From a virus (Duplodnaviria; Caudoviricetes), in IMG/VR virus record IMGVR_UViG_3300036793_000052, positions 1 through 62,756 of that record: DNA of 62,756 bases. The stretch is one strand, 5' to 3'. The notes beneath the pieces are model-generated. The model was not told the DNA's origin. It did not search any database and saw only the letters and a list, made by a program, of their open reading frames with translations. The position numbers and the translations under genes were made by a program. Shown here piece after piece: positions 3,455 to 7,500 of the stretch. Within the stretch, counting starts at the first letter, position 1. Each line of letters opens with the position of its first letter.

Positions 3455-3470
3455 TGTGACACAGATCACA
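3455..3470. promoter_or_regulatory. CRP/GlxR-type binding site
   Basis: TGTGA-CACAGA-TCACA, a perfect TGTGA-N6-TCACA just upstream of the -35. Confidence 0.6.
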
Positions 3471-3491
3471 GCAGAAACTACGGCAAAATGG

Positions 3492-3520
3492 TTGTAAATG
3501 CCGCATGTCGCGACTAACGT
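3492..3520 (+). promoter_or_regulatory. SigA-type promoter of the plus-strand operon
   Basis: TTGTAA-N17-TAACGT. Confidence 0.65.
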
Positions 3521-3542
3521 CAGCTTTGCAAGCGTTACTGAG

Positions 3543-3834
3543 GTTGAGCAGTTGGAGGCACCTCGGGCTTGGGGTTCCAGATTCCTTGGCAATCTGAGAG
3601 GTGAGCTTACCGGCACCTTACCCTTCGGGCCGCAGGCGACACGAAGCAAAACGCCAACCGGTGCTCAACACACACTGAAAAGTGTTGAAGGACAACCAAA
3701 CTGCTAGCTAGGTAACGTTGAACGCGAACGGGAAACAAGAGACGTTCGGTCGAGAAGCGGGCGCAAGCCGACAGCGGATCAAGGTGTGACACAAAAGCCA
3801 TGATGCAGTTTGGTTGTCCCTCAATGCTTTTCAG
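3543..3834 (+). ncRNA. Structured leader or candidate ncRNA with two stem-closed domains
   Basis: 3543-3555 pairs with 3654-3669; 30-nt arms 3675-3704 and 3805-3834 pair with two G-U and one mismatch; internal hairpins. Confidence 0.55.
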
Positions 3835-3862
3835 CAGAAACAACAACATAAGGAGATTCGAA

Positions 3863-4015
3863 ATGAACGCAATCATCGCCCGCGACACCGAAACCGGCAA
3901 GTACCGTGTTCGGGTGCTCGGCACCGATACGGTTGCCGGTCTGTTCGCCGACGTCGCCGCCGCTGAGCGGTACGCAAACAACATCGGCGCAACCGTCGTT
4001 GACGTTCGCAGCTAG
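3863..4015 (+). CDS. small hypothetical protein (50 aa)
   Basis: AAGGAGATTCGAA-ATG. Confidence 0.75.
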   Translation: MNAIIARDTETGKYRVRVLGTDTVAGLFADVAAAERYANNIGATVVDVRS

Positions 4016-4070
4016 TCGAAACGCCTTCGGGCGTCTACCGGATCGGAATTCCGGTACTGATGAGACTTCC
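4014..4070 (+). ncRNA. Type II hammerhead ribozyme 1
   Basis: GTC-GAAA-CGCC TTCG GGCG-TC^-TACCGGA loop TCCGGTA-CTGATGA-GAC; loop GGAA can pair with 3' TTCC. Confidence 0.92.
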
Positions 4071-4093
4071 ACTGCAACACAAGGAGATTCGAA

Positions 4094-4282
4094 ATGTTCG
4101 TTAAAGGACAAGCCGTCGCCGTCGCTGTAAGCCACGGCAAGATGCTTGAAAAGACCATTTACACCGGCACCGTCACTTCGGTCAGCCTCGACGGCAAGAC
4201 AATCGGCTTCACTGGTCAAGATGACAACGGCCTCACCTGGTCACACAACAAAGTTCCCGTTCACCGCGTAACCGCTAGCTAG
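4094..4282 (+). CDS. small hypothetical protein
   Basis: Repeated extended RBS. Confidence 0.75.
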   Translation: MFVKGQAVAVAVSHGKMLEKTIYTGTVTSVSLDGKTIGFTGQDDNGLTWSHNKVPVHRVTAS

Positions 4283-4357
4283 ACCAAAACCGGCCCACTG
4301 CCAGTCGAACTACTCAATAACTAACCCAAAACCACTGCAAAACAAGGAGATTCGAAC

Positions 4358-5203
4358 ATGAGCACCAAAACCGCTGCACGCAAAACCAACGCCAAGCCCG
4401 CCGTCGATAAAGTTGAGATCAAATGGGCTGAGCTACTAGAGCAAGCCCTGACCGTACCCGGTAGCCGTACTAACCTGTTCAACCGGTTCTACGAGTACTC
4501 GTTTCTCAACATGATTTGGCTTACCGTGCAAGGCGTTTCGGAGCCCTGCGGCCCGTACGGGCTGTGGAAGAAGCTTGGTCGCCAGGTCCGCAAGGGCTCC
4601 AAGGGTAAGACGGTTCTGCATCCGGTGATCGTCACCAAGCGTGACCCCGAAACCAAGCAGCCTATCCTGAAGAATGGCAAGGAGCAGCGCATTGTGATCG
4701 GGTTTGCGCCGCGCGCAACAGTTTTCACCTACAGCGACACTGATGGCGACGACCTGGTGATACCGGAGCTGCCCGAATGGTCGCTGGACATGGCGCTCGC
4801 GGCGCTGGAGATTGAGCGGGTTCCGTTCGCGATCAACACCGGCAACGTCGGCGGGTACAGCATTGACCGCAAGCTTGCGATCAACCCGACCACAACCGCG
4901 CCGCTGTCCACTGCGTTTCACGAGCTGGCGCACATCGTGCTCGGTCACACCGGTAAGGATGGGCTCGAAGAGTACCAAACTCACCGGGGCGCAATGGAAT
5001 TCGAAGCTGAGGCTGTCGCCTACCTGCTCCGCAACGAGCTGGAAGTGCACGAATCCGACTTCGACGTCGAGCACAGCCGCAGCTACATCCAGACATGGCT
5101 TGGCGGGCAAGAGGTTTCAGAGAAGAGCATCCGCCGGGTGTTCACTGCAACCAACGCCATCCTCAAGGCTGGTCGCCCGACCCGCAAAACAGAAAGTGAA
5201 TAG
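4358..5203 (+). CDS. ardC: ArdC-like ssDNA-binding antirestriction protein with HExxH metalloprotease domain
   Basis: YSFLN..W, WKKLGRQVRKGSKG, FHELAHIVLGH, EFEAEAVAY, SRSYIQTW. Confidence 0.8.
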   Translation: MSTKTAARKTNAKPAVDKVEIKWAELLEQALTVPGSRTNLFNRFYEYSFLNMIWLTVQGVSEPCGPYGLWKKLGRQVRKGSKGKTVLHPVIVTKRDPETKQPILKNGKEQRIVIGFAPRATVFTYSDTDGDDLVIPELPEWSLDMALAALEIERVPFAINTGNVGGYSIDRKLAINPTTTAPLSTAFHELAHIVLGHTGKDGLEEYQTHRGAMEFEAEAVAYLLRNELEVHESDFDVEHSRSYIQTWLGGQEVSEKSIRRVFTATNAILKAGRPTRKTESE

Positions 5204-5205
5204 AA

Positions 5206-5615: not shown

Positions 5616-5641
5616 CCCACTGCAAAACAAGGAGATTCGAA

Positions 5642-5791
5642 ATGGACTACATCACACGCAACCTGACCTTCGAAGAGTCGGCCACACTCATGCAACACCT
5701 TACCGTGTCCATCGGACACGCTGCCGCCATGGATGCGCTCAGTGTCGTCGCCGACATGGGCGCAGGTGTATTCATGGCAAAGGAGGCTTGA
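5642..5791 (+). CDS. small hypothetical protein
   Basis: Repeated RBS. Confidence 0.65.
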   Translation: MDYITRNLTFEESATLMQHLTVSIGHAAAMDALSVVADMGAGVFMAKEA

Positions 5792-5794
5792 ACA

Positions 5795-5971
5795 ATGGGC
5801 ATCGAACCCGGCGATACGATCTCGTGGCGCGTCGGCACACAACACCGCCGCTTCGGCATGGCAATCTCGGTCATCAAACAAGGCGACAAGATCATCGGCT
5901 ACCGGGCGTTTGACCGCAACGGCATGCCGAAAGTCCTGCTGGCCTACCAGGTGACTAAGGAGGTGAGCTGA
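5795..5971 (+). CDS. small hypothetical protein (58 aa)
   Basis: AAGGAGG RBS; MGIEPGDTISWRVG...; TGATG overlap with next gene. Confidence 0.65.
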   Translation: MGIEPGDTISWRVGTQHRRFGMAISVIKQGDKIIGYRAFDRNGMPKVLLAYQVTKEVS

Positions 5972-6186
5972 TGGTGTTTGTGCCGTGTAGCCGCAAGCAT
6001 GGGAAGCATTGCAGCCCAGCGCATGCAGCAAAGGTGGCGGCGTACCGGGATGAGCGCCGCCGCCAAGAGCTGGTGTTCGAAGGCATGACCGGCGGGTATG
6101 CCGGGGATGCGGAACATGCTGTAGCGCAAGGAAACACACTGGTCACGTTCGGTGACTGGCTGAAAGCAACCAAGGAGAGGAAATGA
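5971..6186 (+). CDS. hypothetical phage protein
   Basis: AAGGAGG RBS, coupled starts and stops. Confidence 0.7.
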   Translation: MVFVPCSRKHGKHCSPAHAAKVAAYRDERRRQELVFEGMTGGYAGDAEHAVAQGNTLVTFGDWLKATKERK

Positions 6187-6326
6187 CTGTCACACTGCGA
6201 ACCATGCTGGAAGAGCTGATCGACAATCATCGCGACGAGGACGCCGCCACAATCGTGGAACGCATATTCACGGTACTCAATGGGGTACCGACGAAAACCA
6301 TTACAAACAAAGGAGATTCAAAATGA
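6183..6326 (+). CDS. small hypothetical protein (47 aa)
   Basis: ATGA overlaps on both sides. Confidence 0.6.
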   Translation: MTVTLRTMLEELIDNHRDEDAATIVERIFTVLNGVPTKTITNKGDSK

Positions 6327-6679
6327 AGAAAATGACCACCACCCGTATCACAATCCTCAGTGCAGCCGCCGCAATCGGCTCGCTCATCGGAGTTGCGCTT
6401 GCACCGCACGCGCACGCCGACACGTCCGACACCGACGCCGCCTACCTGATGACACTATCGGTTGACGGCATCCACTCCGTCTATGGCACGGCGGGGCTAC
6501 TCAACGTCGGGCATCAGGTGTGCGCGCTGCGCCTCGCAGGCAACAGCAATGACGCGGTCATCAACTACGTATATCAGACGTCGGCGCTGGATATGTTCGA
6601 CTCCGGCTACCTAGTTGGCGCTTCCGAATCGTCGTATTGCCCGGCGATGACCAACGACTCCACCGGCACCATCGCCTAG
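6323..6679 (+). CDS. DUF732-like secreted protein
   Basis: Signal peptide ending AHAD; D..YL..L...GI, GHQVC, YCP. Confidence 0.8.
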   Translation: MKKMTTTRITILSAAAAIGSLIGVALAPHAHADTSDTDAAYLMTLSVDGIHSVYGTAGLLNVGHQVCALRLAGNSNDAVINYVYQTSALDMFDSGYLVGASESSYCPAMTNDSTGTIA

Positions 6680-6681
6680 AC

Positions 6682-6966
6682 ATGAACCACCGAACCAAGT
6701 ACAAAGCGGATTACGAACAGCCGCAGCGCATTACGCAGGTCAAAGTGAATGGCCGTAACCTTGTGACCGGTCAGGAGGTGACGTTGTGGCCCGGTGCCGG
6801 GCGCAGGCAATCGCAACGGTACCGGTTTGATTGGGCGACAACCGATCCCGGTGGGCATTTGGTGTTGGAGTTGTATGGGCCGCTCGGTCGGCGGCGTCCC
6901 CCGTCGTATCGGTGTGTTGCGCCGTCCGAGGTGAAGATTGTTCACAGACAAGGAGATGCAAGCTAA
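6682..6966 (+). CDS. hypothetical protein
   Basis: ORF in operon. Confidence 0.65.
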   Translation: MNHRTKYKADYEQPQRITQVKVNGRNLVTGQEVTLWPGAGRRQSQRYRFDWATTDPGGHLVLELYGPLGRRRPPSYRCVAPSEVKIVHRQGDAS

Positions 6967-7109
6967 TGGAGTACGTCGCCAAAGGCGTTAATGTTGTCAT
7001 ACAACTACATAGCATCGACACCGAAATACCCATAGCGCAATGCCATAACGCCGCATGGGCCAACTGCATCGCAGGACTACTACAAAAGGAACACAATGAA
7101 GGGTATTGA
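6966..7109 (+). CDS. small hypothetical protein
   Basis: AAGGAG RBS, TAATG overlap. Confidence 0.55.
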   Translation: MEYVAKGVNVVIQLHSIDTEIPIAQCHNAAWANCIAGLLQKEHNEGY

Positions 7110-7446
7110 GTTTCGTTGCAGGCGTGAATATCTCGGCCTCACCGCCGGATGGTTAGCCCAACAAATGGGCGTGTATGTTCGCACCGTGCAACGCTGGGAA
7201 GAGAAAACCGGCGACATACCACCCAAAGCCGAGCAGGCCATGACATACCTATGCGCCGGTGCGGCGCGGGCAGTGTCCACCATCGCCGTCGAACAAATCA
7301 AACTGAAAGCCAACCTAAAAGAAGGAGAACCGTTACCACCCTTGATGATTCCGGCCGGTGCCGACGAGCAACTACCAGCGTCGTGGCATCGCATGATCGC
7401 GGTGCGGGTCGCCGAACGAACCGGGCAGGAGATCGTCTCCGCGTAG
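7096..7446 (+). CDS. HTH regulator, DUF1870/Aca2(YdiL)-like
   Basis: EFRCRREYLGLTAGWLAQQMGVYVRTVQRWE...IP...WHR; last gene of operon. Confidence 0.7.
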   Translation: MKGIEFRCRREYLGLTAGWLAQQMGVYVRTVQRWEEKTGDIPPKAEQAMTYLCAGAARAVSTIAVEQIKLKANLKEGEPLPPLMIPAGADEQLPASWHRMIAVRVAERTGQEIVSA

Positions 7447-7454
7447 AACAAATT

Positions 7455-7500
7455 AGGCCGGGCTATGACACGTAATGTGTTGTGGCTCGGCCTTTTTTGT
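7455..7500 (+). terminator. Intrinsic terminator between convergent operons
   Basis: AGGCCGGGCTATGACAC/GTGTTGTGGCTCGGCCT followed by a T-run. Confidence 0.85.

Follow-up and report, generated by a model that had tools for sequence, protein, structure and literature searches.

Predicted hammerhead ribozymes in a plus-strand actinophage operon with an ArdC-like gene and an Aca2-like regulator

The window analysed here is a whole virus record of IMG/VR (IMGVR_UViG_3300036793_000052; 62,756 bp, completeness rating 100%). Judged by the proteins it encodes, the source is an actinophage akin to the mycobacteriophages. WhiB and DUF732 proteins are encoded in the window, and two proteins flanking the locus described below point the same way: homologue records of the 303-amino-acid (aa) flank protein come from Mycobacterium phages (23 of 25) and Rhodococcus phages (2 of 25), and those of the 123-aa HTH_17 flank protein from Mycobacterium phages throughout (45 of 45). 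The locus is a block of thirteen open reading frames (ORFs) on the plus strand, at 3863-7446. It encodes eleven small proteins, a 281-aa ArdC-like protein and, as its last gene, a 116-aa Aca2-like helix-turn-helix (HTH) protein, and two of the gaps between its genes hold type II hammerhead ribozymes for which self-cleavage is predicted (Table 1). The same phage occurs in two soil samples. A second soil metagenome, from a different study, contains short contigs identical to the phage, one stretch being 3889-4075 with the first hammerhead; identical contigs of this kind show presence only.

Genes and signals of the plus-strand block

The minus strand bears nearly all of the coding in the window. 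On a crude map of GC content by codon position, plus-strand ORFs follow one another without a break only at 3800-7446; of the 22 selected, 9 make up this block and the remaining 13 are isolated singles. Six other plus-strand ORFs outside the block were tested against PHROG and none gave a match. The sequence-only reading of this DNA, made before the present analysis, had called the block the only plus-strand unit; the map is consistent with that description and falls short of proving it. All thirteen ORFs start with ATG and all have a higher GC content at the third codon position than at the second. Eleven of them are small (46-118 aa), which agrees with the earlier count of about eleven. Many of the ORFs overlap or abut. 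Sizeable intergenic gaps number three, two of them occupied by hammerheads, and a ribozyme is found at only 2 of the 12 junctions between operon genes.

Pfam, an invariant HExxH motif and the predicted fold all mark the 281-aa protein as ArdC-like, and restriction alleviation is its predicted activity. Residues 41-123 match the Pfam family ArdcN (PF08401) with 29.8 bits against a cut-off of 22.6, and the protein as a whole matches phrog_7245, annotated as anti-restriction, at E 2e-14. It has 295 homologues at E <= 1e-5, many of them labelled ArdC at source. The residues H188, E189 and H192 of the HExxH motif are invariant in 19 sequences, and two Pfam zincin models remain under their cut-offs (Peptidase_M78, 18.8 bits against 22; MPTase-PolyVal, 17.8 against 27.5). 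A structural model with a predicted local distance difference test (pLDDT) score of 84.1 matches the ArdC structures 6i89 (E 5.7e-10) and 6sna (two chains, E 6.9e-8 and 1.8e-7) in the Protein Data Bank (PDB), and these three are the only chains at E <= 0.001 among the 191 listed. The template modelling (TM) score against the ArdC chains of plasmid R388 is 0.47-0.49 over about 280 columns, and the sequence alone finds 6i89 at E 0.006. The ArdC-like gene named in the sequence-only reading is borne out by these results. The small ORFs are far less informative: seven of the eleven belong to no family, and the other four fall into families of unknown function. One of these four encodes the DUF732 protein, whose N-terminus is hydrophobic and, by eye, resembles a signal peptide.

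By its profile and its modelled fold, the 116-aa HTH protein is either a distant member of the Aca2/YdiL family or a sister to it. Ten relatives were found in a large protein set, and they share with it the N-terminal HTH and a C-terminal motif. A profile of these 11 sequences gives 19 PDB matches, the top four of which are Aca2 (8w35, 7vjo, 7ezy and 7b5j; E 2.2e-5 to 1e-4, residues 1-63). Four of the 11 family members match Pfam Aca2_YdiL at E <= 0.1, the best at 1.8e-5. The AlphaFold model (pLDDT 86.9) finds Aca2 over its full length at Foldseek ranks 1-5, followed by SO3848 and YdiL; the query TM score (TMq) with Aca2 is 0.57-0.69 and the best E is 1.6e-3, just above the 0.001 line. The kinship is distant: the Foldseek alignments show 18-22% identity with the Aca2 chains, Pfam scores the protein under its cut-off, and a C-terminal motif, P-x-SWHRM-x(3)-R-x-AERTG, sets the actinophage HTH family apart from Aca2. 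Since the profile and Foldseek rankings are both headed by Aca2, the protein is not unrelated to DUF1870/Aca2, and the earlier label of an Aca2-like HTH can be kept.

Aca2 represses its own promoter and binds two hairpins in the 5' untranslated region (UTR), and its RNA motifs are described in 5' UTRs and also between genes, according to PMC13551039. The acr-aca2 operons (Aca2 of Pectobacterium phage ZF40; structures 7vjp, 7b5j, 7ezy and 8w35) have the same layout of variable small genes followed by an HTH of the Aca2/YdiL fold in last place, and a long structured 5' leader is present in the window too. Unlike them, the block described here is without a known anti-CRISPR gene and no inverted repeat was found at its putative promoter. 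A further difference is that the HTH of relatives also occurs outside such operons. The words 'ribozyme' and 'ArdC' have no occurrence in PMC13551039.

The first gene is preceded by about 400 nucleotides (nt) without a credible ORF. The one ORF present there has a flat GC content across codon positions (0.59/0.54/0.53) and is without a ribosome site. The leader had been described as structured, and this is true in one respect: it contains a 30-nt inverted repeat, 90% complementary, whose hairpin is present in both the minimum free energy (MFE) and the centroid structures and whose 3' arm ends 16 nt ahead of the first ribosome-site motif. The folding of the leader as a whole is modest when set against shuffled sequences (z only -1.66; 3 of 100 shuffles equal it). 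At the other end of the block, the operon's own terminator was rightly recognised. The hairpin at 7455-7493 has 18 pairs and a T run, with a fold z of -7.29, and none of 200 shuffles is as stable. A minus-strand ORF (7510-7722; 70 aa, hydrophobic) converges on this hairpin and ends 17 nt from it, and for this reason the terminator probably serves both directions. Genes on the minus strand below 3114 would then require another promoter, in 3115-3460. A 13-nt inverted repeat followed by a T run, at 3310-3368 on the plus strand and thus shortly before the operon, also resembles a terminator.

Table 1. Positions of the features of the plus-strand block in the window, and of the rod hairpins in related loci
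Feature	Position	Strand	Remarks
Putative untranslated leader	3460-3862	+	sole ORF there 3498-3707
Long leader hairpin, 30-nt arms (3675-3704 / 3805-3834) around 100 nt	3675-3834	+	arms 90% complementary
Start motif AAGGAGATTCGAA, six copies (3850, 4081, 4344, 5440, 5629, 6310)	3850-6322	+	
ORF 1, 50 aa	3863-4015	+	no family; UAG stop overlaps first bases of hammerhead 1
Hammerhead ribozyme 1, type II	4014-4074	+	predicted cut after C4035; Rfam 33.3 bits
ORF 2, 62 aa	4094-4282	+	no family
ArdC-like protein, 281 aa	4358-5203	+	N-terminal ArdcN, C-terminal zincin with HExxH
ORF 4, 46 aa	5206-5346	+	no family
Hammerhead ribozyme 2, type II	5366-5427	+	predicted cut after C5389; Rfam 51.5 bits
Five small ORFs (5454-5615, 5642-5791, 5795-5971, 5971-6186, 6183-6326)	5454-6326	+	family only for 5971-6186 (phrog_7933, function unknown)
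DUF732 protein, 118 aa	6323-6679	+	DUF732 46.9 bits; phrog_658
Small ORF	6682-6966	+	phrog_2930; weak DUF7246
Small ORF	6966-7109	+	no family
Aca2/YdiL-like HTH, 116 aa	7096-7446	+	last operon gene
Hairpin terminator, 18-pair stem	7455-7493		T run on + strand; fold z -7.29, 0/200 shuffles as stable
Rod hairpins, 24 copies	L007 246-4790; L008 238-318; L010 726-1767; L016 4774-9653 (= G001 53504-58383)		

Hammerhead ribozymes and the start motif

Both hammerheads announced in the sequence-only reading are present, as Rfam matches at 4014-4074 and 5366-5427 on the same plus strand as the genes. Hammerhead 2 matches Hammerhead_II (RF02276) with 51.5 bits against a gathering threshold of 37 (E 1.1e-07 in a search of the whole window), and hammerhead 1 scores lower. 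The catalytic core is complete in both, with GAA-A, the CUGAUGA (hammerhead 1) or CUGAAGA (hammerhead 2) box and GUC before the cut. In each, stems I and III are closed by loops and stem II is open, and all pairs are standard. Stems II, III and I have 4, 5 and 7 base pairs (bp) in hammerhead 1, with a UUCG loop on stem III, and 3, 6 and 6 bp in hammerhead 2. Following PMC3088659, a pseudoknot was taken as at least four pairs from loop I to the tail after stem II. Hammerhead 1 forms GGAA/UUCC (4 bp, with one U shared with stem II) and hammerhead 2 forms UGGCU/AGCCA (5 bp). The letters of stem I differ between the two ribozymes as well (UACCGGA/UCCGGUA and UGCCGG/CCGGCA). Helices and pseudoknots that are kept by different letters argue for selection on structure, which makes the lower-scoring hammerhead 1 credible. 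Both ribozymes are real by every sequence test available, and both are predicted to cleave themselves.

The next start codons lie 58 and 64 nt past the predicted cuts, and each is preceded by the same short module. The 13-nt motif AAGGAGATTCGAA occurs six times in the operon (five exact copies and one with a single mismatch), each copy ending 0-1 nt before an ATG. The six copies are confined to this operon. In the whole window there are 13 matches at two or fewer mismatches against 0.90 expected, a number reached by none of 100 shuffles, and there are 4 copies of the longer form CCACTGCAAAACAAGGAG where 0.04 would be expected. Four copies carry an extension, CCACTGC(N4-5)CAAGGAG, at 4069, 4332, 5428 and 5617, and this extension is continuous with the pseudoknot tails of both hammerheads. 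The shared ribosome-binding motif described earlier is thus genuine, but it precedes 6 of the 13 ORFs and not all of them. The pattern of the extended motif is found in no stretch of IMG/VR.

The third sizeable gap (4283-4357), which precedes the ArdC gene, is unstructured. It contains 13 nt of the tail of hammerhead 2 (CCAAAACCACTGC) together with AGTCGAA, which resembles the first bases of a hammerhead. The gap could have lost a ribozyme or merely share the start module. With only the 13-nt tail in common, it is not claimed as a hammerhead relic.

A comparable motif is known from Cluster K mycobacteriophages. Their start-associated sequence (SAS) is an asymmetric 13-bp repeat that includes the ribosome site and has no known function; it precedes a subset of the non-structural genes by 3-8 bp, and about half of its copies are preceded by imperfect inverted repeats, forming the extended SAS (ESAS), as described by Pope et al. 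2011 (PMC3203893). Within that description, the two elements are alike as 13-bp ribosome-site repeats placed just before starts. They differ in sequence and spacing (GGGATAGGAGCCC at 3-8 bp in Cluster K, AAGGAGATTCGAA at 0-1 nt here). The motif of the window is moreover confined to one operon and has a hammerhead as the upstream element at two sites. On these comparisons it works like the Cluster K SAS and is not a member of it, the sequence being different.

If the operon is transcribed as a single long RNA from the leader through all thirteen ORFs, the transcript would most likely cut itself at the two hammerheads, after C4035 and C5389, into three pieces. The first would hold the leader and the 50-aa ORF, the second (1354 nt) the 62-aa ORF, the ArdC-like gene and the 46-aa ORF, and the third the remaining eight small ORFs and the Aca2-like HTH gene. 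The 5' end of each downstream piece would carry a 5'-OH and the hairpin of stem I, and the start codon would follow 58-64 nt further on, behind the same ribosome-site module in both cases. At the 3' end of each upstream piece there would be the hairpin of stem III with a cyclic phosphate, and the last piece would be closed by the terminator. With such cuts, the ArdC message would decay and be translated separately from the messages for its neighbours and for the regulator.

A precedent was described by Perreault et al. 2011, who reported several hammerheads flanking genes in prophages. In Agrobacterium tumefaciens the anti-restriction gene ardA is flanked by three hammerheads, for which cleavage was shown in vitro as well as in E. 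coli. Type II ribozymes need the pseudoknot from loop I to the tail in order to cleave fast (PMC3088659). As far as that account extends, the two systems are alike in having type II hammerheads with the pseudoknot, on one strand, bracketing a block with an anti-restriction gene, and in the proposed role of cutting a long message into gene-length mRNAs. They differ in the anti-restriction gene (ArdC-like in the window), in the host group (Actinomycetota, the relatives being Mycobacterium phages) and in that cleavage is predicted here. The window is also distinguished by a ribozyme at only 2 of 12 junctions, by the fusion of each ribozyme to a ribosome-site module and by the Aca2-like regulator in last place. 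Hammerhead-bracketed phage operons have thus been known since 2011; what the window adds is the actinophage setting, the pairing of ArdC with an Aca2-like regulator and the fusion of ribozyme and start module. Literature searches turned up no paper on hammerheads in mycobacteriophages.

The same two cuts would also allow a different outcome, in which the hammerheads excise the 1354-nt ArdC segment (4036-5389) and its ends are joined to give a circular mRNA. The excised piece would have the 3' half of hammerhead 1 at its 5' end and the 5' half of hammerhead 2 at its 3' end. The stem II strands of these halves, AGUC and GACU, pair perfectly, and a chimeric hammerhead could hold the ends together. 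That stem II would have just 4 bp, however, and Perreault et al. searched for circular or spliced products of tandem bacterial hammerheads without finding any (PMC3088659). Circularisation is regarded as highly improbable, and processing into three linear messages remains the preferred outcome.

Related loci and the rod hairpin

Relatives of the block as a unit were not recovered: megablast and blastn searches of 3300-7700 against 50,697 phage records gave no match, and searches of IMG/VR with the 303-aa flank protein or the HTH as single queries, or with the HTH alignment, found none. A search of IMG/VR based on ArdC yielded 24 loci, including one in the closest relative of the phage (genome G001; 63,156 bp with terminal repeats, 100% complete). 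The terminase of G001 is 65% identical to that of the window and many other genes match. Homologues of the HTH are present in 44 phage records, 41 of which are Mycobacterium phages.

The genes at 7709-8620 and 2743-3114, on either side of the block, had been described as neighbours in other mycobacteriophages, and this proved right in substance. In G001 their homologues are 539 bp apart on one strand, with only the Aca2-like HTH between them in the same direction (38331-40126); in prophi62-2 two small genes separate them, and in Bipper nine genes do. Because the HTH lies between the flank homologues in G001, it is resident at the locus. Relative to G001, the HTH of the window is inverted, with a terminator after it and 12 genes and a leader before it. 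The idea of an inserted cassette therefore needs qualifying with regard to the HTH. No inverted repeats that would explain the inversion were found flanking the block. The arrangement of the flank genes around the HTH within 539 bp in G001 is a new observation.

Across the loci L007-L015 the HTH is the only gene in common with the window, the other 12 ORFs having no match there. In three of these loci (L007, L008 and L010) it lies downstream of small ORFs, and in L010 it is followed, by eye, by a hairpin and a T run. In Bipper (L015), the HTH homologue (gene 48) sits among small genes near the integrase. Between these small genes around the HTH, at 1501-5525 of the locus, a 70-nt intergenic repeat (..GTTGCGG..GTCTAGTGAGCTATAAC..GGGCAGGTACCAGACCAGCCCCC) is present six times; it looks like a repeated promoter with a leader. 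Hammerheads are absent from the relatives' loci L004, L005, L006, L014 and L015, and none is found at E <= 1 in L007-L010.

In three metagenome contigs whose HTH is 39-45% identical to that of the window, another RNA stands in the place of the ribozyme. This rod module of about 95 nt consists of a 62-nt hairpin (8 + 13 pairs with a conserved internal loop), a C/A-rich spacer, CAAGGAGATTC and the start codon; L007 has 11 copies, L010 three and L008 one. A covariance model (R1) built from these 15 copies found nine more, outside the training set, between the genes that follow ArdC in G001, and G001 has rods nowhere else in its genome. The model has no match in the window at E <= 10. The pairing of the rod is kept in 94.8% of cells, and 10 of the 21 pairs are changed on both sides (own alignment). 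In the 24-copy alignment the values are 96.5% and 15 of 21, figures that lean towards pairing, the alignment being fitted to the model. Frequent G-U pairs point to an RNA of the coding strand. No Rfam match was obtained for the rod, scans of short stretches at E <= 10 giving only chance-level rows of miRNAs and sRNAs, and the G001 operon has no Rfam match at E <= 1. A degenerate rod pattern occurs in 8 stretches of IMG/VR, of which only the one in G001 is an array; the other seven give two weak single matches to R1 (35 and 28 bits). The ArdC operon of G001 starts, after a terminator, with a leader of about 690 nt that folds strongly (L016 3220-3907), and no similarity was found between this leader and that of the window.

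The position of the rod corresponds closely to that of the ribozyme. In 18 of the 24 rods the upstream ORF stops at a UGA formed by rod nucleotides 2-4. The distance from the start of the rod to the next start codon is 85-107 nt, and that from the start of a hammerhead to the next ATG is 80 and 88 nt. Hammerhead and rod thus take equivalent positions in a module that the related operons have in common. The inverted repeats of the Cluster K ESAS resemble the combination of rod and ribosome site (PMC3203893). As to its role, the rod may be processed by a host RNase, stabilise the RNA, bind the HTH or constitute a new ribozyme. As a binding site it would differ from the known case, the rod being one hairpin and Aca2 binding two hairpins according to PMC13551039. 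A wider and quite improbable generalisation is that hammerheads and rods are interchangeable parts of a 'stop codon - RNA element - ribosome site' module in actinophage accessory arrays linked to the Aca2-like HTH; the rod would then be either a new class of self-cleaving RNA or an RNA on which the HTH or a dedicated nuclease acts. Equivalence of slot with a known ribozyme is reportedly the kind of association that lay behind the discovery of pistol, hatchet and twister-sister. The rod arrays of the relatives are the more novel lead of this analysis.

The junction modules might alternatively act mainly as patches of DNA homology that allow small genes to be exchanged among phages, with cleavage incidental or the ribozymes inactive. 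Such a role would suit the cargo ORFs, which are wholly different between operons with the same junction design and the same HTH; the 13 nt identical to the tail of hammerhead 2 that occur at 4283-4357 without a ribozyme; the stop codon of the upstream gene lying inside 18 of 24 rods, as expected of cassette boundaries; and the different 70-nt repeat among the small genes around the HTH homologue of Bipper. Homology patches have no need, however, of all the core nucleotides kept in both hammerheads, with helices preserved through different letters, or of the compensatory changes and G-U pairs of the rods, which indicate selection on the RNA of one strand. This explanation is judged improbable, and a function of the modules in the RNA, as assumed in the cleavage scheme above, is preferred.

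Function of the operon

It is modestly probable, on balance, that the block is a separately terminated accessory operon whose one self-cut transcript serves counter-defence or host takeover under repression by the HTH. The ArdC-like protein, predicted to combine a single-stranded DNA (ssDNA)-binding domain with a metalloprotease, points in this direction. The terminal HTH would most likely repress the operon at its promoter or leader, as Aca2 does. The unity of the operon is supported by the uniform motif at six starts, the close packing of its ORFs and the terminator directly behind the HTH, and the reading as a whole by the changing cargo that accompanies a constant HTH in L007-L015 and by the rods that stand in the ribozyme's position in relatives. 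Early expression and anti-defence activity of the small ORFs, both proposed in the sequence-only reading, are predictions.

Several results weigh against this interpretation. The first group concerns its components taken one by one. The 116-aa HTH itself scores only 12.9 bits against Pfam Aca2_YdiL (PF08965, DUF1870), with E 0.13 and a cut-off of 23.8. Hammerhead 1, at 33.3 bits, is under the gathering threshold of 37 (E 4.7e-4 in a 4.6-kb search). A scan for sigma-70 promoters returned no site in 2600-8000, and no operator-like inverted repeat is present near the putative start. The operon's own promoter, earlier listed among the features seen, can accordingly only be presumed; the one promoter-like feature, by eye, is a -10-like AATAAT at 3450-3455.

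The second group concerns the association of these components. Among 25 other ArdC-carrying viral records none has a Hammerhead_II match over the cut-off (one weak match reaches 18.2 bits), and G001, the closest relative, has rods instead of hammerheads; hammerheads are not needed for ArdC. In G001 the HTH is 14.5 kb from that phage's own ArdC and rod operon and sits between ordinary regulatory genes, not at the end of a small-ORF array. In phage Dylan, too, the block that the HTH ends is not a small-ORF array; it runs leftward and includes the DNA polymerase clamp. By these gene contexts, the HTH alone is no marker of an anti-defence operon. In the comparisons with Pfam and PHROG, just one of the 13 operon genes, that of ArdC, has an anti-defence homologue. 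ArdC has been characterised for conjugative plasmids and is not known to have been characterised for phages. The DUF732 protein, probably secreted as judged from its N-terminus, would fit a role at the host surface or in exclusion better.

This last point leads to another view of the block, as a moron-type cassette that runs on its own schedule, for example while the genome is carried or resident, and serves host modification or phage exclusion instead of early counter-defence, the hammerheads still processing its RNA. The opposite orientation, the separate terminator, the DUF732 protein with its hydrophobic N-terminus and the large share of orphan ORFs would all be at home in such a cassette. 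The record is rated 100% complete, however, yet neither a tyrosine integrase nor a serine recombinase was found in it, which makes lysogeny doubtful; ArdC and an Aca2-like regulator, moreover, better suit counter-defence. A moron is considered unlikely, and the counter-defence or host-takeover operon with a self-cut transcript is retained as the favoured interpretation.

The proposed organisation has a parallel in phage T7, where RNase III cuts the early polycistronic mRNA at intercistronic hairpins into stable mRNAs of one or a few genes, including an anti-restriction gene. In T7 the cuts are made by a host enzyme, whereas the RNA of the window would cleave itself; the rods of the relatives may be the enzyme-dependent version.

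The role of hammerheads in bacteria and phages is still debated fifteen years after their discovery. If the predicted cuts occur, the operon would be a compact natural case, in a relative of mycobacteriophages, of an anti-restriction gene insulated by ribozymes from the genes around it and from the regulator. Screens for counter-defence in Mycolicibacterium smegmatis could take as candidates the eleven small proteins encoded beside ArdC and the Aca2-like regulator. The related arrays in which a rod takes the place of the ribozyme allow a direct comparison that may reveal if the rod cuts itself, is cut by an enzyme or binds the regulator.

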